Assembly (NCBI GenBank): GCA_038322625.1
Contig: JBBQGA010000015.1
Location: 60,339-124,338, forward strand
Source of the DNA: Chloroflexia bacterium
Lineage (GTDB): Bacteria > Chloroflexota > Chloroflexia > Chloroheliales > Chloroheliaceae
DNA length: 64,000 nucleotides
Reading direction: 5' to 3'
Positions 16,208 to 64,000 of the stretch are shown here, piece after piece; position 1 is the stretch's first letter, and each line of letters starts with the position of its first letter. The notes under the pieces were generated by a model. The model did no database searches and had not been told where the DNA came from. It was given only the letters and a program-made list of their open reading frames with translations. The position numbers were made by a program, and so were the translations under genes.

Positions 16208-16233
16208 GGAATTCGGCCAGGAGTGAAACAACC

Positions 16234-16872: not shown

Positions 16873-16894
16873 ACAGTAGTTACAGGTAAGGGAC

Positions 16895-17734: not shown

Positions 17735-17777
17735 AATGCCCCACTGGTTGCACTTTTTCAAGCCTTTGAATGTTTAA

Positions 17778-18035
17778 TCAGTACCGAAAAGGTGCGCCAG
17801 GCCGTCGGCACGTTAGCAAATGATGTTGTGCCCCCAATAAAATTGAGAAATCAAAGCATTTCCACTCCAAGCGACCACGCACGGCCTCAGCTGCCTGGTG
17901 GTCGGTCAGACCCTCGGTGAATTGATTAATTGTGACCTGAGCTAATCGCCAGGGAGATAGAGCGGGTTGACCATGTGAAGGAAACAACTCACTAAAATCT
18001 TTATCTTGATAGAACACCCCTAATTCATCACGCAT
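17778..18035 (-). pseudogene. N-terminal remnant of an IS5/IS1182-family transposase (InsH-N-like domain)
   Basis: FPSHGQPALSPWRLAQVTINQFTEGLTDHQAAEAVRGRLEWK matches the conserved N-terminal transposase domain. Similarity is lost after about 60 aa. Confidence 0.6.
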
Positions 18036-18201
18036 CCCCCTGAATTCAGGAGGTATAGACGTAATAAGAATCCTGTTTCGCAGCTAATAATTGCTCTTGC
18101 CATATATTTACAAACACGTTACTGGCTTTTAACCCGCTTCCCCTCAACCTCTGGTATGCTCAAATCAAAGAGGATAAGCTCTTTTAGTATTAGTTTATCA
18201 A

Positions 18202-45209: not shown

Positions 45210-45238
45210 TTGACAGGTGGACCTTTTTTTATTATAAT
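45210..45238 (+). promoter_or_regulatory. consensus sigma-70 promoter upstream of the recombinase gene
   Basis: TTGACA (45210..45215), exactly 17 nt, then TATAAT (45233..45238). Confidence 0.65.
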
Positions 45239-45268
45239 GGATCGTATAACACCTATTATACGATCCAT
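45237..45268. promoter_or_regulatory. perfect 13-6-13 inverted repeat (ATGGATCGTATAA CACCTA TTATACGATCCAT) overlapping the -10 and transcription start region
   Basis: Read directly from the sequence. No T-tract follows on either strand. Confidence 0.6.
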
Positions 45269-45333
45269 AAAAAGGAATTTGGTAATAAGGATTTGTAGCC
45301 ATTCTGGCCTAAGATTTAGGGTAAAAATATAAA

Positions 45334-46829: not shown

Positions 46830-47252
46830 ATGCCACTTGCTGTAACTGAACAGGAATTACAACAACTGTTAAGCGAGTCTGAATTTATAAAGATGTACGG
46901 CTTTGAGCTTTATTCATTTGAGGAAGGGAAATGCACGATAAAAATTCCTTTTCGCAGGGAATTTGAGCGACCGGGTGGGGTAGTCAATGGTCCGGTTTAC
47001 ATGGCTGCCGCCGACCTGGCTATCTGGTTCGCCCTGATAACCGGTATCGGACGGCAGGAGGGTGATATGACTGTCACCAACGAACTTAATACCGCTTTTC
47101 TAGGTGGAGGCCGCACCGATATATTATGTAAAGCTGAGATACTAAAGTTTGGCCGTCGTCTGATCTATGGTACCGCCGAATGTCTGGACCAGCAGGGTAA
47201 ACGGCTTACTCACCACACCGCCACCTATATTCGACCGGTCAGTTACAATTAA
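46830..47252 (+). CDS. PaaI/hotdog-fold acyl-CoA thioesterase
   Basis: 140 aa. GGVVNGPVYMAAADLAIWFAL is typical of the PaaI thioesterase family. Confidence 0.75.
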   Translation: MPLAVTEQELQQLLSESEFIKMYGFELYSFEEGKCTIKIPFRREFERPGGVVNGPVYMAAADLAIWFALITGIGRQEGDMTVTNELNTAFLGGGRTDILCKAEILKFGRRLIYGTAECLDQQGKRLTHHTATYIRPVSYN

Positions 47253-47777: not shown

Positions 47778-49290
47778 TTTGACGTTTAGATAAAAAATTA
47801 AAGGGCCAGCCGCTTTGCAGTAACTCGCCCAAACGAGTAATGTTTCTTTCGACCAAAAAAGAAAGGAGATTACTCACATGAACCTTAATATACTTCAACA
47901 ATTTCGGCAGGCCCTCTACGAATGTTTTGAGCAAAGCCGGGATGCTTTGTTCAACCTGGCCGATGCCCTCTTGAGTGAAACTCAGGCTCATTCGGTAATT
48001 GAACTCTCGCTCTCGCCCCACTTTGAGCGTCACCCAAAGGGTAGGTGGCCCAGCTTGTATGCCGCACTCAAACTCGGTAAACTTAACCAGGCTCGTTTTG
48101 AACAAACCCTGGTAAACTTTGCTCCTAAACCTGCTCCCGGCCAAAGAGTGCTACTGGCAGTAGATGCCTCCAATATTGAACGGCCTTTCAGTGAGACCTC
48201 GAGAGACCGGGGCTACCTTTATGCTCACAACCTGCCTGAATGTGATAAGCCGGTTACAGTTGGTTGGCAATTCTCGGTGGTGGTGGTGCCCGCCCAGGCC
48301 AGCAGTCACACTTACATTGTTAGTAATCGCCGCATTCCAACCGCCCAAACTCCGGCCACCGTAGCGGCTACTCAACTTAAAGAGCTCCGAGCTTACTTTG
48401 AACAGCGCCCCATAAATTTGGGCGACCGGTACTATCCGACCAAAGATTTCCTGGTGGAGGTCAGCCCCGATTATGACTTGTTGGTGCGGCTCAAGGCTAA
48501 TCGGGTCTTCTATCGGCCAGCCCCGAGCAGTGGCGGTTGGCGAGCGGCGACGAGGAGCACCTAGCAAACACGGTCCACGCTTTCAGTGTAACAATGTGGC
48601 TACGCACGGCCAACCCGACCAACAATGGATAGGCGTAGACGATAGTGGGGGTAAGATAGTGGTGAGCCAATGGCAGGGTTTGCATCTGCGCGAAGCAGTG
48701 AAAATGAATTTGAGTGTATTTCGAGTGCAGCGTTTTGGAGCCAGTGGGAAACGGCGTGACCCACTGGAAAGCTGGTTCGTATGGTCGGGGCAAAGTGAGC
48801 TTGAACTCAGCGAAGTGTGGGCCACTTACAAAAGGCGTTTCTCCATAGAACACGGCTTCCGCTTCGATAAACAAGATTTGTTCTGGACGCAGCCTCGCTT
48901 GCGGGAGCCAAGTCAATTCGAGTTGTGGACCGCCTTGGTCAGTATGGTCCACGACGAAATGAACGTCGCCGAAAGTTTGGGGGTGGGAATATTGCGACCA
49001 TGGGAAAATCACCAGCGACCACTCAGCCCTCAACAAATCCGGCGAGGGCTGGGGGCAATAATGAGCGAGTTGGGAAGCCTCGCCCGAGTGTCGCAAAGTC
49101 GAGGAAAAGGCATTGGACGGGTCTTTGGGGCAAAAATTGAGCCAGCCATGCGTTACAAAGTGGTTAGAAAGACCCCTAAAAAGGTCAAAAGAGCCTAATT
49201 TTACTGGGTTTAGCTCGAGTTTTAGCATTTTGTTTCACAGCACCTCGAAAGGGGGCTAATTTTCATTGCTTATTAAATCTAAACGTCAAA
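47778..49290 (+). mobile_element. IS element (~1.5 kb, IS701/IS4-like DDE transposase) with 14-bp terminal inverted repeats
   Basis: TTTGACGTTTAGAT at 47778..47791 is the exact reverse complement of ATCTAAACGTCAAA at 49277..49290. The repeats bracket the transposase reading frames. No clear target-site duplication was seen. Confidence 0.7.
47878..49198 (+). pseudogene. DDE transposase interrupted by a frameshift (ORFs 47878..48564 and 48473..49198)
   Basis: The N-terminal part ends ...LVRLKANRVFYRPAP. The +1 frame continues GERRRGAPSKHGPRF...YKRRFSIEHGFRFDKQDL. Together they resemble one IS701-like protein. Confidence 0.65.
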
Positions 49291-49418
49291 GGATAAGAGA
49301 GCCTAAATTTACTTTACATTATGATTACTGGCCCTCTTTGAAATACTGTTTGGTGACAAAAGAATATAGAAAGTGAAATCTAATAAAAATTATCAATTTA
49401 CTGTTAAATTATAGACTC

Positions 49419-49447
49419 TTGTATTAGTGGTAAATTAATGCTATATA
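49419..49447 (+). promoter_or_regulatory. candidate promoter of the helicase/nuclease operon
   Basis: TTGTAT, 17 nt, then TG-n-TATATA (extended -10), ~150 nt upstream of 49599. The context is AT-rich, so a chance match is possible. Confidence 0.3.
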
Positions 49448-49598
49448 TAATTATATAGGCTTTCAATTTCCTATTATTCTTGAGTTCATCGAATTCAATT
49501 ATACAGTCATTTTTAGAACTTAATCTTAAATTCGCTTACGACGCTTCTTTTTACTCATGGGAGCCGCAAAAGCCTTTAATTGGTAAAGGTACGGTTAG

Positions 49599-52500
49599 AT
49601 GCAACTTACTCCCAGCCAATCATTTGAACATATTACAGAATCAGTTATCCAGTACCTCGAAACGGCATACAAAATAAGTCATCCTTTGATTTTCGAAGAA
49701 CGAAGCAGTCTATTGCGGCAGCCAGGAATAATTGCTCGTTATCCATTCATTGAATCAACACCTGCTTTTCCAGCAAGCCGTAGATTGCAAGAGTTGGAAG
49801 CAACCTATCCAGAGTTTATACCAACTGGGCTAAGTGATCTGGTTAAACACGGAATTTCTGTAGATCGATTTCCACTTTATCTTCATCAAGAAATCTCTCT
49901 GCTGGCAGCAAGGAAAGATCAAAAGAGCTTAATTGTTGCAACTGGAACTGGTTCCGGAAAGACCGAAAGTTTTTTATTACCCATTATGGCGGACTTAATT
50001 AATGAAGCCGTTAATTGGGAACCCACCGCCGGTCATACTGGACGCGGTAGATTTGATGAAAACAGCCAGAATTGGCTGCATTCCCGACAGCATGAAAAGC
50101 GACCAGCGGCTTTGAGGGCTATTATCCTCTATCCCATGAATGCTTTGGTAAATGACCAATTAGGAAGGTTGCGCCGTATCCTGGCAAGTAGTTCTTCCCA
50201 AGCATGGCAGCACGCCCACCTCAAAGGAAATCAACTTTATTTTGGAATGTACACAAGTCTTGCTCAGCCTACCGGTAGTTGGAAAACCCCTGGTAAACGA
50301 AAGCAGTTCGAAGAATACTACCGTGAGCTAGAGCAAGATTGGGAGAAATTGCCATCTGCCCTTAGAGAAACTGGTAGTTGGCCGCGCCCGAATAGTCCCG
50401 AAATGCTTTGCCGGTGGGATATTCAAGAAGCTCCGCCTGATATATTGGTTACTAATTATTCTATGCTGGAATATATGTTAGTCAGACCAATTGAGACCGA
50501 TATTTTTGAGCGGACCAGGCATTGGTTAGAAACTTCTCCCGGTGCCCACCTGACTCTGGTATTAGATGAAGCTCATACTTACAGCGGAGCTAAAGGTACT
50601 GAAGTGGCCTACCTAGTACGCCGTCTTAAAGAACGACTTGGTCTGGACTCAGGTTCTGGCAAATTTAGAGCCATCGCTACAACCGCTTCTGTCCCGTCGG
50701 GCGATGATCAAAAAATATTAAAGTTTGCCTCTGATTTATTCTGCGAGCCAACTGAGCGGTTCAAACTCGTGCGGACGGAGCCTACTCAAACCAAGCTTTT
50801 AGAGCGCCATGCAACATCTCGTGCTTTAAAGGAATTTGCAACTTTCTACGAGAATTTTGATCTCCAAAACCCGGTTGCCGCCATCCATAATCTCGCCTCT
50901 GGATTGAACCTGGTGTTGCCGCCTTCATATGATCAACTCCCACCTTCCGTTTTACTTCACTATATTCTTCAACAAAATAATGAAATAGAATGGGTGCGTT
51001 GGCGCACTGCAAGAAATGCTACTCAATTGGATATTCTGGCCGAAGAATGTTGGTCAGGCTTGGGAAGTTTAGAAGCACGTGATAAAGCTACCGCGGGAAT
51101 TTTGGCGGCTGGCAGTTTTGCCCGACACTCTGATTCGGCAGATATTGCCCCTATGCTTTCAATGCGCATTCACGCCTTTACCAGGGGATTACCTGGTCTA
51201 TGGGGATGCCTTAATCAGCAATGCCCGGAAGTTTCAGCCGAACTTAGCCTCCCGGATTATCCACGTCCGGTGGGTAAATTATATCCTGAACCTCGTATCT
51301 GGTGTAGCCCTCGATGTGGCTCCCGTGTTCTTGAGCTATTCTCCTGTCGTAAATGCGGTTTGCTTTTCATGGGCGGTATTCCAGAAGAGCAAGAAGGAAG
51401 CTTATGGCCCTGGAGTGATGATCTGGATGGTGAAAAACAGGACCTAAAACGTTATAAGATTTTTGGACTAGAAGCCCCAGCAGTAGAAGTAACTCCAACA
51501 TACCGGTCCATTCGCACTACCCTGGAATCCCATCCAAAGGATATTTATTCTCGACCGGTTTATGAAATTGCCCCAGATACAAAAAGTGATAGTAAATCAA
51601 CCAGCCCTTTTCCTCAACGCTGTCCCCGTTGCCAAAATTCACGTTCTCCTGGTCAAAGTCCCCGTGAAATTATCGAGCCTTTTCGAACTAGAACCTCACG
51701 CGCATTTTCGGTAATGGCAGATGCAAGTTTTAGGGTGCAAATGCCTTCTACCAGCGGCGATAAACCTAACTATGGGCGTAAAGCTTTACTCTTTTCCGAC
51801 TCACGGATGGAAGCGGCCCAATTGGCGGCTGATTTGCGAAATGACCATCACGCTGACTTATTCCGCCAGATGCTCTATCGTGCGATCTATTGCTGTGTTG
51901 AGTGTGATGGTCATGGAGAGATCGAGGAGGAAGATTCATTCGTTATTGGGCAAACAATAAGTAGACAGAAGGTAAAATGCCAGAGTTGTGGCGGGAGCGG
52001 TCTTAATATTCCAACTGGAGGAACACCCCAGCCGCTTGGCTTCACTGATTTGCGGCGAAAAGTAATTGATTTGCAAATCGCCGTGGGTATTAATCCAACA
52101 AACGGTCGGGAAAAACGATTTTTTCAGCTTTATCAGGATAACAATCCAGACTGGTCAAACTTTGCTGAAGAAGCCTTTAATGCAGGATTGCGTAGAGAAT
52201 TGTCCGAAGATGAATTTGCGCTTGAACCGATGGGACTTGCCCGTTGGAGAGTAAAATTGCCAGCCACCTCTTTTGGCCGTTTTGACCCTTTAACCGAGGA
52301 GGAAAGCCGCCTACTTATTCAACTGGTAAGCCGCATACTGGCCTCTGAGGATATTTTGCTTCCCCCCCAACCTCTTAAACCGTGGGAGTGGAACTCGGAG
52401 TTAGTCGAAAAGTACGAGCGGCGGGTTCTTATAAGAGCTAGGGCCATAGTTGAAAGTGACCTGCAAACAGGAGTACCCTATAATTTTAACCCGTATCGCA

Positions 52501-55061
52501 AATTAGGCCGTTATATTAAAGCTCTGGCGAGTAAACTGGTGAGAGATGGTCGTCTGGCAAACGCTGATAAATGGCTTGGTGTGATGGAAAGCCAATTATG
52601 GGATGCCCTGACCAATAAAACTCTTAATATTCTAGTTCCGGCAGGTTCGGCGATCCGTGAACAAACTCCACGCGGTATCCGGCTGGATATGTTCGAATTA
52701 CACCCAGTAAATAATCTCATTGAGGAATGCCAATCCTGTGCTCTATTAATGGGCGATACAGTGGCGTCAGTATGTTTGCGGTGTGGTCAGGAAACCAAAC
52801 CCATCGAAGTTACTAAACTTCGAAAGAATTTCTTTAGGCAGGCTGCCTATTACGCCTTACCCGGGTCCGGATTTCATGACCCCTACCCCCTACGTTCTAT
52901 TGAGCATTCCGCTCAAATTTCAGGTAAAGAAACCCGCAATTACGAACGCTGGTTTCAAGATATGTTTCAGGAAAACCAGCAGCCTCTTGATTCAAGGATT
53001 GATATTCTTTCGGTGACTACAACCATGGAAATGGGTATTGATATTGGCAGTTTGCTAAGTGTGGCTTTAAGTAATGTTCCACCATCGGTTGCCAATTACC
53101 AGCAGCGGGCCGGTAGAGCTGGGCGGCGGGGAAGTGCTCTCGCAACTGTGATGACTAGTGCTCTTTTACGCAGCCACGACCAATATTACTTTGATCGACC
53201 ACCGGAAATTGTCAGTGGTACCCCTCGTGTACCAGTGCTTTATCTGAATAATGAGGTAATTGTTCATCGTCATGTTCGCTCTGTATTGTTACAAAGTTTC
53301 TTTTTTCAAAAATACAAATTTGCTACTTCCTCAAATCTTTTACAGGCTTGGGGTCTGGTAGAAGAATATACGAGCCAAAAAACTGCAGTGAAACTGGCTG
53401 ACTTTCTTGAAGCAAATTCGGGGCATCTCATTGAACGGTGTACTCATATAGTGCCGGCAAATTTTCAATCAAGACTGTCTGATTGGTTGAATGCCCTTAG
53501 AATGGAAATTGATAAAGTTGTGGCTGGTTGTGATGACCAGATTGGTCTTTTAGAAGCTCTTATTAATGGGGGGTTGCTGCCAAAATACGCTTTTCCAGTG
53601 GATGTTGTGCGGCTTAATATCCCAACCCCTCGTGATGAAAATAACCCGGAACGCTTCGAGTCAGCTGAAGGGGAGGGAATGCAGCGTGATCTTAAAATTG
53701 CCCTGGCCGAATATGTTCCGGGAGCAGAAGTTTTGCGAGGCGATTTCCCGAACACTTATGTATACCAGAGTGCTGGTTTATACGACCCTTTTAATGATAC
53801 TCCCGATTATCACGCGCATGGCCAATTGGTGGAATGTTCCGATTGTCAATCGGTTCAGTTAATCGGGCAGGACGAAACTTCCCCTGATGAATGCGCACAA
53901 TGTAATGGGCTTAATCTAATAACCTTGCCCTATTTAAGACCGCCAGGCTTCACTGTGGATTGGGCTAAACCAGATGCAGGCCGGGAGTTATATAAGGGTG
54001 GCGGGCGCGAACGATCCGGAACGGTACTTCCAGCTCGGTTGTTGATTGGTGAAACGGTATTTAATAGTGGTCATGCTTTCTCGCCGGTTGCTCCAAGCTT
54101 ATTCATTCAAACTCGTAATGATAACCTGTTTTGCTGTAATAAAGGTCCTGACCAGCGTTGGCCCGGTTTTAGGATTTGTGCAAGTTGTGGACGGTACTTT
54201 TCAGGGAACGAAAAGCCTGGTAAACATCGGTACCCGGCCAATATTCCTCCTAACCGAGGTTATTTAAAAGGCCCTCGTGCTGGGGCTTTTTGTGTTAATA
54301 CAACCGATTTGCAAAATCAGGTAGTTCTTGGTTACCCTTTTCGCTCTGATTTAATTTTAATGGGAGTGAATTTACCACCGGAATTAGACGCGCCTATCAA
54401 TCAACCCTTTGGGCGGGCTATCTGGTACTCCTTTGGCACGCTTTTAGTTAATGCTGCTTCTCTGATCTTACAGGTTGATGCGGGCGAATTGAAAGTAGGA
54501 GTGAGAGCTATTAACCGTGGACCTGGACGTTTACATGGGGAAGTCTTTATTTATGATGATGTGCCTGGCGGTGCAGGCTACGCCAATGCTATAGCCGATA
54601 ATCTGGAAGAAATCTTATTTAAAGCCCTGAAACTGGGTAGGAATTGCACCAATCCTCAATGCATCGGAGCTTGCTACCACTGCGTACTTGATTATCGCAA
54701 TCAGTTACTTCATCCTATTCTGGATAGAGAATTAGGCACCGCTTTACTGGAATATATTCTGAGTGGAAAATGCCCCCAACCCGATCCAATCAAGATTGGA
54801 ACGTATGTAGCAGGACTTGAACAATATACGCGCTTAAATTCAGAAATGAAACCAGGCCGCAAAGTAGAAGGGCTGGAGCTCGCAGCAATCTTCCAAAAGA
54901 AAGGTGGTAGCCAGGTAGGTTTGCACGTTATTCATCCGCTGGAAAGCGCACCTGGTAAATCCTTACTCAGAAACATTTTCATTCAGCATAAAATCAAATG
55001 TGTAACCCATACGCTTTTTGACCTGGAGCGTAGACCCTTTTGGGTGAGTCGCAATATCTAA
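49599..55061 (+). CDS. 1820-aa SF2 (DEAH) helicase fused to a DUF1998/MrfA-type zinc-binding C-terminal module; DruE / DrmA+DrmB-like
   Basis: Motif I VATGTGSGKTESFLLP, motif II LVLDEAHTYSG plus TNYSMLEYMLVRP, motif VI YQQRAGRAGRRG. C-terminal LLPKYAFPVDVV, DDVPGGAGYANAI and CYHCVLDYRNQ. Several Cys4 ribbons. Confidence 0.85.
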   Translation: MQLTPSQSFEHITESVIQYLETAYKISHPLIFEERSSLLRQPGIIARYPFIESTPAFPASRRLQELEATYPEFIPTGLSDLVKHGISVDRFPLYLHQEISLLAARKDQKSLIVATGTGSGKTESFLLPIMADLINEAVNWEPTAGHTGRGRFDENSQNWLHSRQHEKRPAALRAIILYPMNALVNDQLGRLRRILASSSSQAWQHAHLKGNQLYFGMYTSLAQPTGSWKTPGKRKQFEEYYRELEQDWEKLPSALRETGSWPRPNSPEMLCRWDIQEAPPDILVTNYSMLEYMLVRPIETDIFERTRHWLETSPGAHLTLVLDEAHTYSGAKGTEVAYLVRRLKERLGLDSGSGKFRAIATTASVPSGDDQKILKFASDLFCEPTERFKLVRTEPTQTKLLERHATSRALKEFATFYENFDLQNPVAAIHNLASGLNLVLPPSYDQLPPSVLLHYILQQNNEIEWVRWRTARNATQLDILAEECWSGLGSLEARDKATAGILAAGSFARHSDSADIAPMLSMRIHAFTRGLPGLWGCLNQQCPEVSAELSLPDYPRPVGKLYPEPRIWCSPRCGSRVLELFSCRKCGLLFMGGIPEEQEGSLWPWSDDLDGEKQDLKRYKIFGLEAPAVEVTPTYRSIRTTLESHPKDIYSRPVYEIAPDTKSDSKSTSPFPQRCPRCQNSRSPGQSPREIIEPFRTRTSRAFSVMADASFRVQMPSTSGDKPNYGRKALLFSDSRMEAAQLAADLRNDHHADLFRQMLYRAIYCCVECDGHGEIEEEDSFVIGQTISRQKVKCQSCGGSGLNIPTGGTPQPLGFTDLRRKVIDLQIAVGINPTNGREKRFFQLYQDNNPDWSNFAEEAFNAGLRRELSEDEFALEPMGLARWRVKLPATSFGRFDPLTEEESRLLIQLVSRILASEDILLPPQPLKPWEWNSELVEKYERRVLIRARAIVESDLQTGVPYNFNPYRKLGRYIKALASKLVRDGRLANADKWLGVMESQLWDALTNKTLNILVPAGSAIREQTPRGIRLDMFELHPVNNLIEECQSCALLMGDTVASVCLRCGQETKPIEVTKLRKNFFRQAAYYALPGSGFHDPYPLRSIEHSAQISGKETRNYERWFQDMFQENQQPLDSRIDILSVTTTMEMGIDIGSLLSVALSNVPPSVANYQQRAGRAGRRGSALATVMTSALLRSHDQYYFDRPPEIVSGTPRVPVLYLNNEVIVHRHVRSVLLQSFFFQKYKFATSSNLLQAWGLVEEYTSQKTAVKLADFLEANSGHLIERCTHIVPANFQSRLSDWLNALRMEIDKVVAGCDDQIGLLEALINGGLLPKYAFPVDVVRLNIPTPRDENNPERFESAEGEGMQRDLKIALAEYVPGAEVLRGDFPNTYVYQSAGLYDPFNDTPDYHAHGQLVECSDCQSVQLIGQDETSPDECAQCNGLNLITLPYLRPPGFTVDWAKPDAGRELYKGGGRERSGTVLPARLLIGETVFNSGHAFSPVAPSLFIQTRNDNLFCCNKGPDQRWPGFRICASCGRYFSGNEKPGKHRYPANIPPNRGYLKGPRAGAFCVNTTDLQNQVVLGYPFRSDLILMGVNLPPELDAPINQPFGRAIWYSFGTLLVNAASLILQVDAGELKVGVRAINRGPGRLHGEVFIYDDVPGGAGYANAIADNLEEILFKALKLGRNCTNPQCIGACYHCVLDYRNQLLHPILDRELGTALLEYILSGKCPQPDPIKIGTYVAGLEQYTRLNSEMKPGRKVEGLELAAIFQKKGGSQVGLHVIHPLESAPGKSLLRNIFIQHKIKCVTHTLFDLERRPFWVSRNI

Positions 55062-55069
55062 GGAGCTGC

Positions 55070-56242
55070 ATGCATCAAGAATTTAGTTGGGTTGTAAGAG
55101 AAAACCAAAAATGGCCTCCACAAAAACGGCCCGATGCGCCTTATGGTGTTACTACTTTGCACACCCTCAAATCTTGTTCTCTAAAAGCGTGTTTTGAAGC
55201 TTCCAGCGGTAATTATACGCGAAGAAAGTCTTTTCCGGCCAGAATAGGCTTGGCCTATCATCGAACTATGCAGTATATTTCTGAAAACATAAGGTCGATG
55301 CAATCCCCTGAGAAAGCAGCTGAACTGGCAATTAGCTATTTTGAACAAGAATTGGATCGTGAAAGAGCGGGCAAAGCTTCAAACCCGCGAGAGTGTCGTT
55401 TACTGGAAGATGAAAACCGGGTGGAAATGGCTGTATTAGCGATAATTGCAGAAGCACAGAATGCAGTTGAGACTTCCGGTGCAACTGAATTAAGGGATGT
55501 CAACTTTCCAGCTCAGAACCGGGAATGGTCGCCCGTTCGTGTTGATCATTCAAAGTCAGGTCTGGTAGAGCCGGAAGTACCAGTAGCCTCTCAGGATGAA
55601 CTTATAATTGGGCGGATTGACCGAGCTGAACATAGTGTCAACGGAGTACGTTTAATCGATTTTAAATTGGGCTTAAGCGATGATGTACCTGAACAATACC
55701 AACGGCAATTACAACTTTATGCCTATTTATGGCAGCAGAGTCGGGGGGAATGGCCTTTTGAAGCTAGTTTAATTTACTCCTTAACCGGTAAAGAACATTC
55801 TGTTCAAATTACCCCTGAAATATGTCTGGCAGTCGCGCGAGATTATCGAAAAGTAATCGCCAGAATTGAAAAAGAAACCCGATTTGAAAAACTAGCCAAG
55901 CCAGGTGAAGTATGCAAATTTTGTGAATTTAGACCATGGTGCAAGCCCTTCTGGAGTTGGCAAGCAAGTGAAACCGACGATAAAACCATGCTTGAACGGG
56001 CTTTCTGGGGATTCGAAGGCAAAGTCAATAGTATAATATTGCTAAATGGATACTGGAAGGTTGAACTACAATGGCACGATTTAGTAGTTAGCTTAACCGT
56101 TCATGAAGAACGATTTCCTCAATTACACCACGCCCAGTCAGGCTCATTGTTGAGGTTGTTAGAAATAAGATTACATGGCAACCCGTTCCGACCCAATGGA
56201 CAAGTCAGGGAATCAAGTGAAATCTTCATTGTGGAAGAATAA
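55070..56242 (+). CDS. Cas4/AddB-like PD-(D/E)xK nuclease with Fe-S cluster cysteines
   Basis: GRIDRAE ... LIDFKLG (D...DxK), QLQLYAYLW (QxxxY), and CKFCEFRPWC (CX2CX5C) plus N-terminal Cys (LKSCSLKAC). ATG at 55070 lies 4 nt after AGGAG. Confidence 0.75.
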   Translation: MHQEFSWVVRENQKWPPQKRPDAPYGVTTLHTLKSCSLKACFEASSGNYTRRKSFPARIGLAYHRTMQYISENIRSMQSPEKAAELAISYFEQELDRERAGKASNPRECRLLEDENRVEMAVLAIIAEAQNAVETSGATELRDVNFPAQNREWSPVRVDHSKSGLVEPEVPVASQDELIIGRIDRAEHSVNGVRLIDFKLGLSDDVPEQYQRQLQLYAYLWQQSRGEWPFEASLIYSLTGKEHSVQITPEICLAVARDYRKVIARIEKETRFEKLAKPGEVCKFCEFRPWCKPFWSWQASETDDKTMLERAFWGFEGKVNSIILLNGYWKVELQWHDLVVSLTVHEERFPQLHHAQSGSLLRLLEIRLHGNPFRPNGQVRESSEIFIVEE

Positions 56243-56245
56243 ATA

Positions 56246-59200
56246 ATGACACAACAAATAACCAAACCTCATGTCAGTGTCGGTGGGTTTGTAATCGGAA
56301 TGTACGTCCGGGCGGCTACTGACTATCCTGCTTCCCAAAGTTTTAATTATCGGATTGTTCGAATAGCTCAGCTTAATCCTGCCGCAAATCGAGCCAGAGT
56401 TACTTTTTACCAGCCGGATAAACCTGCTCAGGATCGAAAATATCCACTTGATGCTTTGACCCGCTGCGAGGTTTTACCCGATACTTCAATTATTATGATT
56501 CCCAACCGGGAAAGAGGTCGGGTTTTGCTGGCAGTTCAAGATGGTTGGCAAACCAACCTGCCAAAACAATATTATGTTCAACTTAAGGGCAGTCCTGAAA
56601 TACAAATAGCTAGTGAAACAGAATTTGAGATAGAGAGCCACCGGCAGAATCCTTCCCCCATGGATCAGTTGAAACAATTAGAATTTTATGACCCTCGTTT
56701 AAAAAACGCCCGTGACCAGGTGGTGGAAATGTACTATCCCCTACGTAATTCAACACCTGGGCTAGATGATTTAGTTGGCTCCAGAGTTATGCTGCTTCCT
56801 CACCAGGCTTCAGTTGTTACAAAGGTTGTGAACGATCCACGATGTCGTTATTTATTGGCCGATGAAGTAGGTTTAGGTAAGACGATTGAAGCCTGTGTCA
56901 TACTTAAAAGCTTGTTACGCCACAACCCCACTATGCGTGTTCTTGTGGTTGCTCCACTTTCACTGGTGCAACAATGGTATCATGAACTGAACACCCGGTT
57001 CTGGTTGGACTTTAAAATTGTCGGCACTATTCAGGAAGCCAGAACTCGACTTCCTCAATATAACCTATTTATTGTTGGCATCGAAGACTTAGACGAGGAA
57101 ATGGGGATTTGGTCTAAGATTGGTTTCCAAAAATGGGACATGATAATTGCAGACGAAGTACACCAATTAGGTAAAGCGGATTTGCTCTACGGACGCATTC
57201 AAATGTTAAGCCGAGATGCGCGACGACTGCTGTTAATTTCAGCCACACCTATACAGCATTATGCTGCTGAATATCTCAAACTGATGGCCTTACTTGATCC
57301 CGAACGCTATGATCATGAAAATCTGGAAAGTTTTAAAGTTACTTTATCTTTACAAGAAAATGTAAGGCCAGCTTTAAATAAGCTTGACCGCTTGATTCAT
57401 GCAGAGGAAATTGACTCAGAAGAGGCTGAAGAAGAAATAGAAAAAGTTAGGAAGCTTTTTCCGAATGACCTAAAATTGAAAAATTTACTCAACGCTATTT
57501 TGAGGCAACTTAGCAACTCAGCCAGTGCTAGTTCGGCGGCTAATGAGGCTTGGGCCTACCTTACTGAAAACTACCGGATGGAAACCCGAGTTATTCGGAA
57601 CCGGCGTAAGCGGGTTGAGGGTATGATTACTCTGCCACAGCGGCAGTTAGAAACGACTTACTGCTATAACCCCGGCGAGCGCGAAACGTTAGTATTGCAG
57701 TATTTGCACGAATACATTGACTTTTATTTGTCCGAAACAGGCGAAGATGTTTTCTGCCTGGAATATACTCGCTTGCTTCTTTATGCGGCTTTCAGCAGCC
57801 CTCATGCCCTTCTAGATTTATTAGAAAAGCGGTTGAAGGCTGCCCGTTTATCGGCAATTTTACCGCGTGTGCGGATGACTAACCGTCTGATTCCGGCCCA
57901 GCCGCGAAAAGAGCAAGAGCGGGTGGAGTATATAGTCAAACTTGCGACCCCACTACCACAGGAACCTGAAAAGCTCGAAAAACTTTGTTCACAAGTACAG
58001 CGTTGGAAAACTGAAACTGAGGAAGCCTTACAAGCTGTGTGCGCTCGACCAGCCCTGCTTGCCTTACCCAGTTGCCACCGGCTGGTGCAGATATTGCGGA
58101 TACTCTATAAAGAACCTACGGCCCGCTCGCTCCTATTTTGTGGTTGGCGTGAAACTCTTAATATTTTAATTCCTTATCTAAATCAACTTTTCCGGGGGGA
58201 AATCGCCGAATTTAGTTGCCGAGTTAACGAAAACGTATTGCAGGATCAAGCTAACCGCTTTCAGCGTGGGAACTGCCACATTCTGGTCTGCGATGAGCTG
58301 GGAGGTGAAGGCCGTAATTTTCAAATTGCCGATCAAATTATCCACCTTGACCTTCCATGGACACCTGCTCAGATTGAGCAACGGATTGGAAGAGTAGACA
58401 GAATTGGTCGAAAGGGCCAGGTGCTTTCAATTGTACCGTTCGCCGTGGATTTTGCCGAGCACGATTTATTCCGGATTTGGAACGAGGCTTTCAATTTATT
58501 TACCCGATCTATGAGTGGTATGGAAATCGCCCTTGAAAAAGTCCAACTTCGGCTTGTAAAAGCTTTGTTATCTCCCGAGGGTTCTCAGTATGGCCTCAAA
58601 GAATCTCTGAAACCGTTTGTGAAAGAGGCTGAAGACATAAGCAATAAGATTGAAAGGGAGCGTTACCAGGAAGAAGATACCGATAAACGGTTGCATCGCG
58701 AATTCCAGAATGTTATTCGCCGGTATGAAGACGGTGCTCTTTTGCGGAATGCTTTATTGGGTTGGATTAAAGTTGCTTCTTTACCGGGCAGTTATAACGC
58801 GGCTACGGATACTGTGCGGGTTAAAATTGACCAGTTCAGTACCGAGACATTGGCACAATACCGTTTTTATAATTTGGCTGAAGTGCGGGAGACACTCCGT
58901 CGGGCTGAGCGACTCCAGGGTAAAAACAACGAATTTGAAGGTACGTTTAACCGGCAGCGGGCGGTCCAGCGTGAAGATTTAGTCTTTTTTGTGCCTGGTA
59001 GCGATCCCTGGACTGAAAAGATTATTGCACACGCCCTCGAGGCTGACCGAGGACGCTGCACAGGTATTTTACGGGCAAAAACTAAACTTGGCAAAGATTA
59101 TCATATCTTTGAGTTTCTCTATACTATTATGGTGGATCCCCGTCCGCTCTATGCTCTGGGTTATGATTCCGGGCAGCTTTCATTGGCCACCGGTTATATT

Positions 59201-59653
59201 CCTCTCGCTACAAAACGTTTACTAATAACACATAGTGGGCAGAATGTTCCAGAAGGTCACGCTGTTTGGGAGACCATTATCGGACGGCCCTTTGATCCTT
59301 CAAATGGAGATAAACGTTTCCGTGATCCAAAAGAGCCACAATATTTCGATTTATTAAAGAAAATTTACTCTGCTGAAAAATGGGAAGTGACTCTGGACCG
59401 GGTGAAACAGACAGCCCAACAAAAGCTCGAATCCCAACTAGTTAATCAACCGCACGTTTTGCAACCTGCTCGAATTGAACTTGAACAGCGTGCATTTGGA
59501 CAAAGAACTCTTCGCAAGAATTTGGGTGCATCTAATCTTGAGTCCGATTTGCACAATCAGTTTATTACAAACGCTTTAATTGAAGGTTTGGAAAAGCCCC
59601 TATTCCAGTTAGAGTCGATTTGTTTTTGGATTTTGGCCGGGAAAAATAAATGA
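56246..59653 (+). CDS. SNF2-family (RapA/HepA- or DrmD-like) ATPase, 1135 aa
   Basis: LLADEVGLGKTIEA, IIADEVHQLG, LLISATPIQH and CDELGGEGRNFQ...HLDLPWTPAQIEQRIGRVDRIGRKG. The start lies 4 nt after the previous stop. Confidence 0.85.
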   Translation: MTQQITKPHVSVGGFVIGMYVRAATDYPASQSFNYRIVRIAQLNPAANRARVTFYQPDKPAQDRKYPLDALTRCEVLPDTSIIMIPNRERGRVLLAVQDGWQTNLPKQYYVQLKGSPEIQIASETEFEIESHRQNPSPMDQLKQLEFYDPRLKNARDQVVEMYYPLRNSTPGLDDLVGSRVMLLPHQASVVTKVVNDPRCRYLLADEVGLGKTIEACVILKSLLRHNPTMRVLVVAPLSLVQQWYHELNTRFWLDFKIVGTIQEARTRLPQYNLFIVGIEDLDEEMGIWSKIGFQKWDMIIADEVHQLGKADLLYGRIQMLSRDARRLLLISATPIQHYAAEYLKLMALLDPERYDHENLESFKVTLSLQENVRPALNKLDRLIHAEEIDSEEAEEEIEKVRKLFPNDLKLKNLLNAILRQLSNSASASSAANEAWAYLTENYRMETRVIRNRRKRVEGMITLPQRQLETTYCYNPGERETLVLQYLHEYIDFYLSETGEDVFCLEYTRLLLYAAFSSPHALLDLLEKRLKAARLSAILPRVRMTNRLIPAQPRKEQERVEYIVKLATPLPQEPEKLEKLCSQVQRWKTETEEALQAVCARPALLALPSCHRLVQILRILYKEPTARSLLFCGWRETLNILIPYLNQLFRGEIAEFSCRVNENVLQDQANRFQRGNCHILVCDELGGEGRNFQIADQIIHLDLPWTPAQIEQRIGRVDRIGRKGQVLSIVPFAVDFAEHDLFRIWNEAFNLFTRSMSGMEIALEKVQLRLVKALLSPEGSQYGLKESLKPFVKEAEDISNKIERERYQEEDTDKRLHREFQNVIRRYEDGALLRNALLGWIKVASLPGSYNAATDTVRVKIDQFSTETLAQYRFYNLAEVRETLRRAERLQGKNNEFEGTFNRQRAVQREDLVFFVPGSDPWTEKIIAHALEADRGRCTGILRAKTKLGKDYHIFEFLYTIMVDPRPLYALGYDSGQLSLATGYIPLATKRLLITHSGQNVPEGHAVWETIIGRPFDPSNGDKRFRDPKEPQYFDLLKKIYSAEKWEVTLDRVKQTAQQKLESQLVNQPHVLQPARIELEQRAFGQRTLRKNLGASNLESDLHNQFITNALIEGLEKPLFQLESICFWILAGKNK

Positions 59654-61545
59654 TTGAATTATTCGATCAACTTGAAGTAATTTTATCTGCTCCAAATCCC
59701 AATTTTGATAATTTTACTCATAATCTGATTACTGTGCAACCAGAACTGTCGCCGTGGGAGCTCGCCAGGAGCAATGTTTTACTTCGTCTTGTCGCTGTGT
59801 TGCAAAATTATGAGGCTGGACAGACAAGCTTGGTGGATCTTGCCGTATTGCTCCGTCAGGCTTTACGGATCTATCACCGCCGTTTAATAATTACCCACCG
59901 ACTATGGGAGGCTCTAAGTCCAATTGCTTCCAAATTTGGACTTCAGGCTACTAGGGATGCTGAAAGTGGAGGTACACTCCTCAGTGCCGAACCCTGGAAA
60001 CCTTACTGGTTAGCCGCTACCATAGCCATTGACCGGCTTGAAATGCGCCGAAACGATCCGCTTGTGATAGGCGATGGTTTGCTTTACGCCACGAGTCAAA
60101 CATTAACGTATAAATCAGAGGCGCAAAAATCGGCGGTGCAAGCTTGCCTTTTCGGCTCTCCCGGTTCTACAACTTTAGTCACCTTACCCACCGGGGCAGG
60201 AAAAAGTATGTGTATTTTGTTACCGGCATGGCAAGCTTCGCAGGGCGGTGTGATAAAAGGTGGGACCACACTGGTGGTCGTGCCTACCGTGTCTTTGGCA
60301 CTCGATCAAATGGAACGGGCTAAAACCTATTTTGGTTCTGCCAAAAATGAGGCTTATGAACCGCACGCCCTGGTGGGTGGGACGTCAGAGGAAGAGAAAG
60401 AAATTATTTTTCGAGGTCTGTTAAACGGAACATTGCCGGTTCTATACACTTCCCCGGAAAGTTTGCTCAACTCCCGTCTTTATACAACATGTCTAATTGC
60501 TGCTGAAAATGGCCTTATCAACCGGCTTGTGATTGATGAAGCGCACATAGTAGAAACATGGGGAGCCGGTTTCCGAACCGAGTTCCAATTACTGGGAGCT
60601 TACCAGAAACTTTTGCTTGAAAAAAGTCAGGGCCAATTGCGAACTGTTTTATTATCTGCTACCGTATCTGAAAAGTGTGATAGCCTCTTGGAACTGCTTT
60701 TTGCGCCCGCTACCGGCCTAAACCGTGTTCAATCCAACCGCTTGCGGCCAGAACCTTCTTATTGGTTTAGTTATTGTAAACGAGAGGAGGAACGTCAGCG
60801 AAGAGTATTGGAAGCTTTTTACTACCTTCCGCGTCCAATAATTCTGTATGTTACTCAACCTGAAAAGGCTAATGAATGGTCGGAAAGGTTGAGTAAATCC
60901 GGTTTCAATCGCCTGGCTACCTATACCGGTGAGACCAATGATACTGACCGCCGGGCGATACTCGAAAAATGGCAAGCAAACCAGCTTGATATAATCGTGG
61001 CAACCTCGGCTTTTGGACTTGGGGTGGATAAAGGAGATATACGAACCATTATCCATGCCTGTTTGCCAGAGAATCTGGGCCGGTTTTACCAGGAGATTGG
61101 GCGTGGTGGGCGGGATGGTTGTAGTTCGATTAGCCTGACTTGCGTTACCTACGATGACAGAAATTTAGCTTTCACGATGACTCGCACGAGCGTCATTACT
61201 CCTGACCGGGCCGCAGACCGTTGGAAATCGCTCTGGAAGAACAGGCAGGGCGAAGGTAAATTATGGTCAGTGGATATAAACAACACGCCAAAAGATCTGG
61301 TTAAGCGGGGCCAATTGCCGCCCAGCGAAGCCAACCGGGAGTGGAATGAGCATATCTTGCTACTTATGCAGCGAGCCGGAATTATACGTATACTCGACTC
61401 AAAGGATAAAAACCTTCAGACTTATGCCAACCGGCTCAAACCGGGCGTAGAAGAATCACTGTGGCTGCCTTTGGAATTACTTAAGCCTGAAATCCTGAAT
61501 GATCGTATGGCTTTCAAAAATTTAATTACACCTTTACGAGAATAG
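59650..61545 (+). CDS. RecQ-like SF2 helicase (N-terminal 631 aa, ends at an in-frame TAG)
   Basis: LPTGAGKSMCILLPA, VIDEAHIVETWGAGFRTEF, LLSATVSE, VATSAFGLGVDKGDIRTIIH and YQEIGRGGRDG. ATGA overlap with the previous gene. Confidence 0.8.
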   Translation: MIELFDQLEVILSAPNPNFDNFTHNLITVQPELSPWELARSNVLLRLVAVLQNYEAGQTSLVDLAVLLRQALRIYHRRLIITHRLWEALSPIASKFGLQATRDAESGGTLLSAEPWKPYWLAATIAIDRLEMRRNDPLVIGDGLLYATSQTLTYKSEAQKSAVQACLFGSPGSTTLVTLPTGAGKSMCILLPAWQASQGGVIKGGTTLVVVPTVSLALDQMERAKTYFGSAKNEAYEPHALVGGTSEEEKEIIFRGLLNGTLPVLYTSPESLLNSRLYTTCLIAAENGLINRLVIDEAHIVETWGAGFRTEFQLLGAYQKLLLEKSQGQLRTVLLSATVSEKCDSLLELLFAPATGLNRVQSNRLRPEPSYWFSYCKREEERQRRVLEAFYYLPRPIILYVTQPEKANEWSERLSKSGFNRLATYTGETNDTDRRAILEKWQANQLDIIVATSAFGLGVDKGDIRTIIHACLPENLGRFYQEIGRGGRDGCSSISLTCVTYDDRNLAFTMTRTSVITPDRAADRWKSLWKNRQGEGKLWSVDINNTPKDLVKRGQLPPSEANREWNEHILLLMQRAGIIRILDSKDKNLQTYANRLKPGVEESLWLPLELLKPEILNDRMAFKNLITPLRE

Positions 61546-61578
61546 GAAAGAACTAGAATCGAGCAAGCTCTCGACAAA

Positions 61579-62259
61579 ATGCGGACTTTAATAAGTAACT
61601 ATTCCAGTCGCGAGATTGACCGTTGCATAGCATATCCGTTAGGGAAACTTTACCCGGCTTGTGCTCTGGCATGTGGAGGCTGTCCGGCTTGCCGGAACCA
61701 GGGCCGCCCCGCCTATTGTGAGAAATACCAGCTAGAAATTCAGATGACTCCGATGCCTACCTCTTATACTCTTCGAGGGGAACTTGCTGCCCGTCTGGCC
61801 CACAACACCACGCTTAACCTTTATTGGGAGGGTCAGCATGAACTGAACAAAATACAAGACTTAGAAGATTTCTTGGTCAACCTGGTAAATTCAGGGTTTC
61901 GGCAGCTTATTTTGCCGCATACGCTACTGAATGACTCGGTCTGGGCGGCGACCCTAGTGAAGAAGTTGTCTTATCTTGAACAACCAGTTCCACATTTAAT
62001 CGTAGGTGAAGATTGGCCGGGCCGTCTGCCACTTTATCCGGTTCCAACGGCCTTGATCTATCCTTCAGAAAACGCCGAGGCCGATAGTCTTTTCCGGAGT
62101 TGGAAGGTAGCCCGCCGGAACTGGCCCGCCCTGCCGACGATAAATGTTATTAACCGCAATCTTTACCTGGAAAGTGAACACGGCTATTTTACTGACCGGG
62201 TAGAGGGCAGTGTCGAAAAGCTGGACCAGTTGCAGATTGACCTGGCCCTCGATTATTAG
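61579..62259 (+). CDS. 226-aa Cys-rich protein in the same frame as the RecQ-like gene; probably its detached C-terminal part
   Basis: Same reading frame as 59650..61545, separated by only one TAG and 11 sense codons. No SD precedes the ATG. CALACGGCPACRNQG resembles a RecQ-type zinc motif. Confidence 0.55.
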   Translation: MRTLISNYSSREIDRCIAYPLGKLYPACALACGGCPACRNQGRPAYCEKYQLEIQMTPMPTSYTLRGELAARLAHNTTLNLYWEGQHELNKIQDLEDFLVNLVNSGFRQLILPHTLLNDSVWAATLVKKLSYLEQPVPHLIVGEDWPGRLPLYPVPTALIYPSENAEADSLFRSWKVARRNWPALPTINVINRNLYLESEHGYFTDRVEGSVEKLDQLQIDLALDY

Positions 62260-62278
62260 GTATTAGGAGAACTGAAGC

Positions 62279-63154
62279 ATGGCTTACGAAATCTTGGACA
62301 AAGACACAGTGACCCCTCACCGTTTGTATGCGTTGGTCCGGTTGGTGCCTCGCTTGGATGCACCAAAGCGCAAAGATATTATGGATTTATTGCAGCCATC
62401 CGAACTTGGCCTAAACCAGGATACCGCTTCAGATGTTTATTTAGCTGCCAAACATTGTAATTTATTCAACGAAGGTACGGATGGAGTTATGACACTTACA
62501 GTACCTACGAACCAATTTGATACCATAGAAGCCTTCCGTAATTTACTATGCAAATTATTACTTGGGATAAAAGAAGAGGGATATAATAACTATAATTTAA
62601 ATCTGTTTACAGCATGGTATTGTATTCAGGATAACAAAGTATTCAGTCAATTTGAGACCGGTTTTGACTATGCGGCTGCATTTAATTCTCAACTTTTACC
62701 AAACTTAAACATCCCCAAGTTTGAACAACGGAAGATTAATGCCTGGAGAGAATGGGCCGCATTTCTAGGGTTTGGCTGGCTGTTGCGTTCCGGTTCCAGA
62801 AATAGCCGGTCTATTCTTGTACCGGATGCATACGTGCGGCTTGAGGCGGTATTGGATGAGTTACTTGTTCGCGGGCCCGCGGTAAAGTTTGGCGAATTTA
62901 TCGAGCGACTGGGCCAACGCTGCCCTGAATTGGATGGGGGAAGTTTGTTTGAATATTGCTGGAAAGTCTGCAATCCGGGAGAGCGTAGGTCTAACACGCT
63001 GAGCCTTATGCTCTCTAACGCCCTCTACCAGCTACACGCCGAGAAGAAAATCGTTTTACAACGGAGCGGTGACGCATTGGATAACTGGCAGCTTTTCCCG
63101 GCAGCCGGTCAGTCCATGGGACAGGTTTCCCATATATCCCGAGGAGAGAACTAA
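62279..63154 (+). CDS. hypothetical protein (291 aa), last large gene of the operon
   Basis: ATG lies 8 nt after AGGAG. No motif recognised. Confidence 0.6.
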   Translation: MAYEILDKDTVTPHRLYALVRLVPRLDAPKRKDIMDLLQPSELGLNQDTASDVYLAAKHCNLFNEGTDGVMTLTVPTNQFDTIEAFRNLLCKLLLGIKEEGYNNYNLNLFTAWYCIQDNKVFSQFETGFDYAAAFNSQLLPNLNIPKFEQRKINAWREWAAFLGFGWLLRSGSRNSRSILVPDAYVRLEAVLDELLVRGPAVKFGEFIERLGQRCPELDGGSLFEYCWKVCNPGERRSNTLSLMLSNALYQLHAEKKIVLQRSGDALDNWQLFPAAGQSMGQVSHISRGEN

Positions 63155-63252
63155 TGGCGGCTACTTTTGAAGCTTTCCAGTGCTGGAAGGACGAACGTGT
63201 TTACCAAGTCGTAAATACGGTAATTCGGTACGATGGGATACGGTGTTTTTAA
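63154..63252 (+). CDS. possible 32-aa coupled mini-ORF (MAATFEAFQCWKDERVYQVVNTVIRYDGIRCF)
   Basis: TAATG stop/start overlap with the previous gene. There is no independent support, and it could be a remnant of a truncated gene. Confidence 0.2.
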   Translation: MAATFEAFQCWKDERVYQVVNTVIRYDGIRCF

Positions 63253-63280: not shown

Positions 63281-64000
63281 TTAATCCGGCTGGTGTAGCC
63301 AGCCTTTTTCAAAGACCCAGGTTGCCAGTTGGATGCGCGAGTTGAAATCTAACTTGGAAAAAATATGGTCAAGGTAACTTTCGACCGTCCGTTTGTTCAA
63401 GACCAACGTTTCGGCAATCTCGCGGTTCGTTTTACCCTGGGCCACCAGCAAAGCGACCTCCCGTTCGCGTTCAGTCAGACCAGCCCAGGCTTTTTTGGCC
63501 GCCTGGCGTTCCGATGGGGCCGGGACAGCCGGAACCTCGGCTTGGGCCTGGCGCTGAAAATGAGCTTGTAAAACCGGGTCGTCAAGCTCGGCGGCAATTT
63601 CAGCAATAAGGGATTGAGCGGTTCGGATTGCCCCGGTAGCCGCTTCGGGGCGTTTCAGTTTTAAAAACAGCCCGGCCAGGGCCAGGTTGACCCGCCAGAG
63701 CAAAGGGCGTACCTCCTGGGTCTCGAGAGCCGCTTTGAATGTTAGCAAGATTGTCTCGGCTTCCTGGTTGCGATTCAGGGCCATTAAAATCCGGGCCTGT
63801 AGCAGCGTCGGAAGGACCGGTTGAACCGGAAGACCCAGGATATTGACCGGGCTAAAAGCTTGCATCCTGTTGGCAATATCAAGGGCCTTTACATGCTGAC
63901 CCTGAGCAAAGGCCAGTTCGGCCTGGGCCTGCCAGGCGGTACGCTGGCCAAGGGTTTGAGTGAGGGTATCCGGGGCCAGTATTGCCTGCAAAGTTTCTTC
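63281..64000 (-). CDS. 3' part of a LuxR/LAL-type transcriptional regulator (continues beyond the window)
   Basis: C-terminal GerE/LuxR HTH (LTEREREVALLVAQGKTNREIAETLVLNKRTVESYLDHIFSKL) preceded by TPR-like helices. The frame is open to base 64000. Confidence 0.75.
   Translation of the reverse strand, partial: EETLQAILAPDTLTQTLGQRTAWQAQAELAFAQGQHVKALDIANRMQAFSPVNILGLPVQPVLPTLLQARILMALNRNQEAETILLTFKAALETQEVRPLLWRVNLALAGLFLKLKRPEAATGAIRTAQSLIAEIAAELDDPVLQAHFQRQAQAEVPAVPAPSERQAAKKAWAGLTEREREVALLVAQGKTNREIAETLVLNKRTVESYLDHIFSKLDFNSRIQLATWVFEKGWLHQPD

Follow-up and report, generated by a model that had tools for sequence, protein, structure and literature searches.

A partly decayed operon in a Chloroflexia bacterium is probably a chimera of the Druantia and Dpd defence systems

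Dpd is a 7-deazaguanine restriction-modification system encoded by the genes dpdA-K (Thiaville 2016; PMC10164549). Its restriction phenotype comes from DpdD-K, the individual roles of DpdE-I are unassigned in the literature (PMC10164549), and its modification and restriction genes form separate operons (10.1101/2025.02.24.639861). Druantia systems are recognized by the helicase DruE. In type III this protein acts at single-strand/double-strand junctions (10.64898/2026.05.13.724313; 10.64898/2026.05.12.722862) and, according to recent preprints, degrades DNA with its own PLD domain (10.64898/2026.05.12.722862), and the DruE of types I and II carries an inactivated C-terminal nuclease (Bell et al., 10.1101/2025.09.15.676423). 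Here we describe a locus from a Chloroflexia bacterium that combines components of both systems. The window, which is the whole 64,000-nucleotide stretch that was analysed (contig JBBQGA010000015.1 of assembly GCA_038322625.1, positions 60,339 to 124,338), includes an operon block of six tightly packed plus-strand genes in its list of open reading frames (ORFs), A to F, at 49599-63154. This block is probably a partly decayed copy of a rare, conserved seven-gene anti-phage operon, a Druantia-Dpd chimera. Every gene comes from a known defence family, and what is new is the combination, not a categorically new system. No published system definition or description of this arrangement was found in the searchable literature, and the published dpd survey, which was anchored on dpdAB, would have missed it.

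The families were assigned with PADLOC, NCBIfam and Pfam profiles, and all three agree, PADLOC and NCBIfam being curated independently of each other. Gene A (49599-55061, plus strand) encodes an intact DruE of 1820 amino acids. It matches the PADLOC DruE1 model at 3.3e-286 (951 bits), with the full length covered in two stretches, as against only 1.7e-19 for DpdJ. With the NCBIfam DpdJ model it scores 58 bits (cutoff 800), and it shares 29% identity with canonical DpdJ over 276 amino acids. The protein is a DEAH helicase of the YprA family and contains many CxxC zinc modules. It has GSGKT and DEAH motifs, ten CxxC motifs, and Pfam DEAD, Helicase_C and C-terminal MZB (DUF1998) domains, and its closest solved structures are large helicases of about 2000 amino acids, 9wae (3e-105) and 9tu7. 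A Pfam scan of the C-terminal tail, at the sequence level, was negative for Vsr, PLD or any other nuclease domain. This result, like the inactivated nuclease of Druantia I and II DruE, fits a nuclease that is supplied in trans, in this case by gene B.

Gene B (55070-56242, plus strand, in an ORF open from 55040) encodes an intact Cas4/Dna2/AddB-like Fe-S PD-(D/E)xK nuclease (Pfam PDDEXK_1, 9e-18). It most likely starts at the ATG at 55070, which has GGAG 4 nucleotides (nt) upstream and gives the same 390-amino-acid product as the NCBI protein P0001. In PADLOC the protein matches DruK weakly (2e-16) and Cas4 (6e-11), and it scores 40 bits with the Cas4 equivalog TIGR00372 (cutoff 65). It has the Fe-S signature C-x2-C-x5-C, and D184, D197-x-K199, Q213, Y217, C282, C285 and C291 are invariant in 28 homologues. 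A Foldseek search with its AlphaFold2 model (mean predicted local distance difference test, pLDDT, 88) retrieved Dna2 (3e-7), ACE1 (8e-7), AdnAB, Cas4, Exo5 and AddB, ACE1 being an Argonaute-associated Cas4-family protein. The C-terminal beta domain (residues 315-389) matches HIN/OB/RPA DNA-binding folds. The structural relatives of this protein are nucleases of single-stranded DNA ends that are fed by a helicase.

The remaining genes are of the Dpd type. Gene C (56246-59653, plus strand) encodes DpdE, an intact SNF2/RapA/BrxHII-like ATPase of 1135 amino acids (PADLOC DpdE, 1.8e-99). Its score with NCBIfam DpdE, 464.8 bits, is slightly below the cutoff of 500; it has SNF2 and RapA_C domains, RapA as its closest solved structure, and 40% identity over its full length to DpdE of the canonical Dpd locus L020. 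Genes D and E together (59650-62259, plus strand) correspond to DpdF, a RecQ-like DEAH helicase whose C-terminal part is rich in Cys, in the form of a pseudogene. An in-frame TAG at 61543-61545 (codon 632) splits it into ORF D (59650-61545, 631 amino acids) and ORF E (61579-62259, 226 amino acids). D scores 623.8 bits with NCBIfam DpdF, above the cutoff of 550 (PADLOC DpdF, 2e-153), and far under the NCBIfam cutoffs for RecQ; E matches positions 635-743 of the DpdF profile. The orthologue in the related locus L003 has CAA (Gln) at the position of the TAG, and unbroken 879-amino-acid DpdF orthologues occur in L003, L019 and L091. A single gene, interrupted by a Gln632-to-amber change, accounts for both D and E. 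The three ATPases A, C and D have all kept their Walker A and DExH motifs. Gene F (62279-63154, plus strand) encodes an intact DpdG of 291 amino acids (PADLOC DpdG, 1.1e-13; NCBIfam DpdG, 70.8 bits with a cutoff of 80). The Pfam family PF28110 (DpdG) is carried by 113 of 113 clusters of gene F homologues, and the protein is 47% identical to DpdG of L020. Its AlphaFold2 model has a pLDDT of 94.7 and a predicted template modelling score (pTM) of 0.91. The search of solved structures with this fold gave no significant match, with weak partial resemblance to winged-helix domains and to the recognition domains of N.BspD6I and FokI.

An earlier note on this DNA, made from the sequence without database searches, had described the same ORFs, and its coordinates and junctions were reproduced. 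B and C are 3 nt apart, C and D overlap in ATGA, and DpdG overlaps the next ORF in TAATG at 63154. Overlaps or gaps of 3-8 nt separate most of the genes, and 19 nt precede DpdG. The domains it named (DEAD, Helicase_C and MZB/DUF1998 in A, PDDEXK_1/Cas4 in B, SNF2 and RapA_C in C, a RecQ-like core in D) were recovered by the profiles, and the joining of D and E into one RecQ-like helicase gene agrees with the in-frame TAG and with the DpdF profile that spans both. It had treated C, D+E and F as unassigned partners and F as a protein with no recognizable motif; these are instead DpdE, DpdF and DpdG, with DpdF above its NCBIfam cutoff.

What the note took for a possible seventh gene at 63154 is a stub of 32 codons, and its first 21 codons are the N-terminus of DpdH. 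This DpdH remnant (63154-63219, plus strand, first ~21 codons) encodes 21 amino acids that are 81% identical to the N-terminus of DpdH in L003, where the gene after DpdG is DpdH (PADLOC, 1.9e-75), a P-loop ATPase by homology. The TAATG overlap lies at the same position of the DpdG/DpdH junction in L003 and L019, with DpdH starting on the last base of DpdG. DNA similarity to L003 stops at ~63218-63220, which is the deletion breakpoint, and DpdI is not in the window. Judged from this alignment, the window has lost most of DpdH plus everything after it. With the amber codon in DpdF, the cut DpdH and the missing DpdI, this copy is most likely dead as a whole, and its DruE, nuclease, DpdE and DpdG genes are still intact.

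In relatives the full unit comprises seven genes in the order DruE, nuclease, DpdE, DpdF, DpdG, DpdH (~1066 amino acids) and DpdI (229 amino acids). The combination of DruE and nuclease with Dpd genes, whose conservation elsewhere the earlier note had made a test of its proposal, was found only in the window, in L003, in L019 and in the pair L091+L092, which together represent three diverged lineages; the pair shares ~90% identity with L019 and derives from a different sample. The window proteins share 60-77% identity with their L003 counterparts and 47-57% with their L019 counterparts. The junction between the nuclease and DpdE in the hybrid loci consists of gaps of 7 nt or less, or of overlaps. 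DpdI is the last gene of the operon in L019 and L091, where opposite-strand genes follow, and in L092 a tyrosine integrase gene lies upstream of DruE. The hybrid lineages form one clade, at ~50% identity, in each of three neighbour-joining trees (DpdG, the nuclease, and the C-terminal half of DruE), and the DpdG tree places this clade within the radiation of canonical Chloroflexota Dpd. A single clade in all three trees points to a single origin followed by co-divergence of the parts, and co-divergence to ~50% identity with the tight spacing kept looks like that of a functional unit under selection. No modification genes (TGT) were found in L003, L019, L091 or L092, and no methyltransferase was found in the operon, the scanned flanks or the hybrid relatives. 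A HEPN_Swt1+DUF499 protein of 1122 amino acids is encoded beside the hybrid system in L019 (14762-20353).

Outside the hybrid loci the two halves occur separately. The family of gene B comprises 77 clusters, most of them 38-47% identical to B, and the relatives in named genomes are mostly from Chloroflexota; a scan of viral contigs for the nuclease family found nothing. In 16 of 16 other B-family loci with flanking sequence, a DruE of ~1800 amino acids is encoded directly upstream and no Dpd genes are present. DruA is usually adjacent to this DruE-nuclease pair, or a few genes off (L006), and beside close relatives of the pair it matches PADLOC DruA1 at 4e-144. The resulting trio of DruE, Cas4-like Fe-S nuclease and DruA occurs in L001, L002, L004-L015, L017 and L093 (6569-14394), recurrently in metagenome-assembled genomes of Chloroflexota; in most of the loci L001-L017, DruE lies at ~4500-10000 and the nuclease at ~10001-11200. 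On a Meiothermus taiwanensis plasmid the trio is bracketed by insertion sequence (IS) copies, and its DruA is so annotated by NCBI. The trio lacks DruB, DruC and DruD, matches none of the published Druantia types I-IV and may be an unnamed Druantia variant; no description of it was found in the searchable literature. Other genes of defence type accompany these loci. Near the pair, L004 (1-4452) has a PIN gene as well as genes for a PLD-SNF2 protein and a Type IIG Eco57I-like enzyme, and L006 (1173-3071 and 17742-18467) has a Multi_ubiq/ThiF/BubE-like set and a TIR protein; in L001 (12555-16359) a Dam-like methyltransferase and an AAA_15/AAA_21 ATPase are encoded beside DruA.

For the other half we compared 71 canonical DpdG loci, namely L020, L021 and 69 metagenome loci. 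About 30 of them have enough downstream sequence, and these show DpdE-F-G-H-(I) followed by DpdJ, most also with DpdK (PLD) and DpdD. Three others (L045, L051 and L059), outside this count, have sequence far beyond DpdH or DpdI in which no DpdJ was detected. The canonical gene order in Chloroflexota is DpdE-F-G-H-I-J-K-D, in some cases with TGT/DpdA upstream, and the window DpdE, DpdF and DpdG have 40-47% full-length identity to a canonical Chloroflexota locus. Neither DruE nor a B-type nuclease was found in any of the 71 loci. The losses in the hybrid are complementary, because its Dpd half lacks DpdJ, DpdK and DpdD and its Druantia half lacks DruA. L021, from Ktedonobacter sp. SOSP1-52, is another Dpd locus with signs of disruption: its canonical DpdJ is split into ORFs of 376 and 1184 amino acids (14805-19468), and the stretch from the TGT gene to DpdE contains transposase genes of the IS605 and IS4 types (708-3431).

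The Dpd core thus appears to have swapped DpdJ and DpdK for DruE plus the nuclease, and to carry no modification genes. We considered other explanations for this arrangement. The strongest of them, which we regard as possible and clearly less likely than the chimera described above, is that the hybrid is modification-dependent like canonical Dpd: genes at another place in the genome, for DpdA/B/C and preQ0 synthesis, would mark self DNA with 7-deazaguanine, and DruE and the nuclease would replace DpdJ/K as the cutter. The DpdE-I proteins are indeed full-length orthologues (31-47% identity) of proteins from modification-linked loci, Dpd loci of the canonical kind with TGT/DpdA are common among Chloroflexota, and the modification and restriction operons of Dpd are separate (10.1101/2025.02.24.639861). 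However, no TGT/DpdA was found in the 64-kb window in a tblastn search with Chloroflexota DpdA, the operon and flanking proteins gave no match to DpdA, DpdB or DpdC (DpdB and DpdC being covered by this protein-level search and not by a search of the whole window with their own models), and L003, L019, L091 and L092 have no modification genes either. In addition, the integrase directly upstream in L092 suggests that the cassette may move alone, in which case a lone modification-dependent module would attack its new host, and no modification component is known for Druantia, the partner system. Self/non-self discrimination is probably independent of cis-encoded modification, a view that we favour because none of the four loci has modification genes and an integrase lies beside one of them. 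A further idea is that DpdE-I reads 7-deazaguanine with the opposite sign, so that DruE and the nuclease would mount a Type IV-like attack on phages with 7-deazaguanine in their DNA, or, in a weaker form, that the Dpd core works without any base modification; we consider it improbable. 7-Deazaguanine bases are a known phage counter-defence.

It is equally improbable that the block consists of two unlinked neighbours in a defence island, a Druantia-like helicase-nuclease pair next to an orphan Dpd remnant. Defence genes often cluster and recombine, the window copy is visibly decaying, and many genomes carry the DruE-nuclease pair but no Dpd genes. Yet three lineages at ~50% identity, which form one clade in all three trees, have the same gene order and the same tight spacing, the losses of DruA on one side and of DpdJ/K/D on the other are reciprocal, and chance neighbours would not be kept for so long with the overlaps and short gaps described above. 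The closest characterized housekeeping relatives of the proteins (YprA/MrfA, RecQ, AddB/Dna2 and RapA) could also suggest an operon for DNA repair or recombination instead of immunity, made up of YprA/MrfA-type and RecQ-like helicases, an AddB/Dna2-like nuclease and an SNF2 remodeller. This explanation is very improbable, because gene A scores 951 bits with DruE versus 51 bits with YprA, D is above the DpdF cutoff and far under those of RecQ, the distribution is patchy, the AT-rich block has integrase and IS neighbours, and the neighbours of related loci are defence genes (TIR, PLD-SNF2, Type IIG restriction-modification, HEPN).

Several points weigh against the reading of the block as a decayed copy of a chimeric defence operon. 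The defence role and the mechanism of the hybrid are deduced from genes alone, and a physical interaction between DruE and nuclease B from gene adjacency alone. The trees are simple neighbour-joining trees without support values. The hybrid is represented by three lineages only, and all but the window come from metagenome contigs, which would not show a dpdABC set encoded in trans elsewhere in the genome. A sequencing error could account for the amber codon in DpdF, and the label 'Druantia type-I-like' for gene A derives from the best PADLOC model together with the association of its relatives with DruA.

On the chimeric reading, we hypothesize that DpdE (an SNF2 translocase), DpdF (a RecQ-like helicase), DpdH (a P-loop ATPase) and the small proteins DpdG and DpdI would recognize and engage foreign DNA. 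DruE would then unwind the DNA from single-strand/duplex junctions and thread a strand into nuclease B, whose OB-like domain could hold the single-stranded DNA in an AddAB- or Dna2-like manner. In such a scheme DpdE-I would form a sensing and engaging module, and DruE with nuclease B a degrading module in place of DpdJ/K. The chimera indicates that these parts may be interchangeable, DpdJ/K for DruE plus a Cas4-like nuclease and DruA for DpdE-I, and it supports a modular view in which an effector helicase-nuclease pair is combined with a sensing and translocating module. It also offers a test case for whether a Dpd restriction core can work without 7-deazaguanine modification, and it bears on two open questions, the roles of DpdD-K and the working of Druantia types besides III. 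Its practical importance for this particular genome is low because the copy is broken.

The genomic setting may be that of an inserted island. The guanine-cytosine (GC) content of the block is 0.44-0.48 versus 0.52-0.57 in its flanks (2-kb windows), in agreement with the AT-richness that the earlier note had judged by eye, and the IS debris and recombinase gene that it reported upstream are present as a split IS701-family transposase and a tyrosine recombinase. The tyrosine recombinase/integrase gene (45334-46689, plus strand, 451 amino acids; NCBIfam XerC/XerD/integron-integrase matches, E ~1e-41) is possibly the mobility gene of the island, and its product has no detectable similarity to the L092 integrase. 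It is preceded by an 18-nt near-perfect palindrome at 45232-45273 and is flanked by paa-like aromatic-acid genes (40.8-45.2 kb) on one side and by a hotdog thioesterase gene on the other (regions 45232-46689 and 46830-47252). The recombinase and the defence block may have been inserted into an aromatic-acid catabolic cluster. A search for att-like direct repeats around the island gave only short repeats at chance level. The IS701-family transposase gene (47878-49198, plus strand) is frameshift-split into two overlapping ORFs that match positions 1-216 and 218-438 of the 439-position model NF041680. It lies directly upstream of an AT-rich leader (49200-49598, plus strand, GC 0.31 in the composition profile), which is presumed to be the promoter region of the operon; a promoter scan upstream of A gave weak sigma-70-like matches only, not above those in shuffled sequence.

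Beyond the block the window is ordinary chromosome, with genes for DNA polymerase I, transporters and aromatic-acid catabolism. GC-rich, host-like DNA with a LuxR-type regulator gene starts directly past the DpdH breakpoint. A terminator-like GC hairpin with a T-run (63288-63304) is found just beyond this breakpoint, at the 3' end of the minus-strand LuxR-type regulator gene (63281-63991), and may now also terminate transcription of the truncated operon. A megablast search with the block against 5,426 Escherichia coli genomes gave no match.

The comparison with described systems supports the description in the earlier note of a methyltransferase-less, defence-type operon centred on a DruE-type helicase with DUF1998. 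Its proposal of an undescribed system stands in part, in that the operon is neither DISARM nor any named Druantia type, but it reads as a chimera of two described systems. Of the refuting conditions in the note, the assignment of the whole gene set to a described system by existing models applies by half: every gene is placed in a described family, but these families belong to two different systems. The operon resembles ARMADA type I and class 1 DISARM in that a YprA helicase is followed by a BrxHII/RapA-like SNF2 ATPase. It differs from both because it lacks a PglX-type or other methyltransferase and a DrmC PLD protein, and because its YprA protein is not split like DrmA/DrmB. ARMADA was rejected because no PglX-like methyltransferase was found, and DISARM because the matches to DrmA (4e-11) and DrmD (2e-38) are weak relative to those to DruE and DpdE and neither the PLD protein nor the methyltransferase was found. 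With AddAB, AdnAB, Dna2 and Cas4 the operon shares the Fe-S PD-(D/E)xK fold, the catalytic motifs, an OB-like domain and an adjacent helicase gene, whereas its nuclease B is a separate polypeptide in a defence operon, with no cas1, cas2 or CRISPR. The assignment of B as a CRISPR Cas4 was rejected on its sub-cutoff equivalog score and its DruE and DpdE neighbours, and the likeness is at the superfamily level.

Druantia and the operon have in common the signature helicase DruE, for which DruE1 is the best PADLOC model, and the pairs in relatives adjoin DruA. The window and its hybrid relatives differ in that they lack DruA, DruB, DruC and DruD, their accessory genes being Dpd proteins, and in that they have a dedicated Cas4-like nuclease, which is outside the published types I-IV (PMC8565338; 10.64898/2026.05.13.724313). 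DruA had no tblastn match in the window, and the operon proteins had no PADLOC match to DruA-D. Membership of type I was rejected because DruA-D were not found alongside DruE, that of type III because there is no DruH match and no PLD domain in the tail of A, and that of type IV (DruE, DruF and DruL; PMC8565338) because neither DruF nor DruL is among the six proteins.

With Dpd the operon shares DpdE, DpdF and DpdG in the window, together with DpdH and DpdI in intact relatives, as full-length orthologues in the same order. In the window, DpdE and DpdG are just under their NCBI equivalog cutoffs, and intact DpdH and DpdI genes are absent. The logic is also the same, with an SNF2 ATPase, a second helicase, a P-loop ATPase, and a YprA helicase accompanied by a nuclease. 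The hybrid differs from Dpd because it lacks the DpdA/B/C modification module and DpdD, because its YprA helicase is of the DruE type and not DpdJ, because its nuclease is a Cas4-like PD-(D/E)xK enzyme and not the PLD protein DpdK, and because its helicase-nuclease pair is at the 5' end, whereas the canonical pair is at the 3' end. Neither DpdK nor DpdD had a match in the window or the hybrid loci.

The conceptually closest known system is BRIGADE, which is likewise a hybrid: Dpd-like proteins (DpdG, DpdHI/BrxC) accompany a YprA helicase of the ARMADA/Druantia branch, and a PD-(D/E)xK nuclease sometimes replaces the PLD protein (10.1101/2025.09.15.676423). Reports of BRIGADE are confined to haloarchaea; the system retains genes for 7-deazaguanine biosynthesis and usually contains two YprA genes. 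Membership was rejected because the operon has one YprA gene and no que/TGT genes and its named relatives are bacterial, mostly Chloroflexota. Relative to BRIGADE, the present system has no modification genes, has a single YprA helicase and keeps both DpdE and DpdF, and it can be regarded as a bacterial counterpart of these haloarchaeal hybrids.

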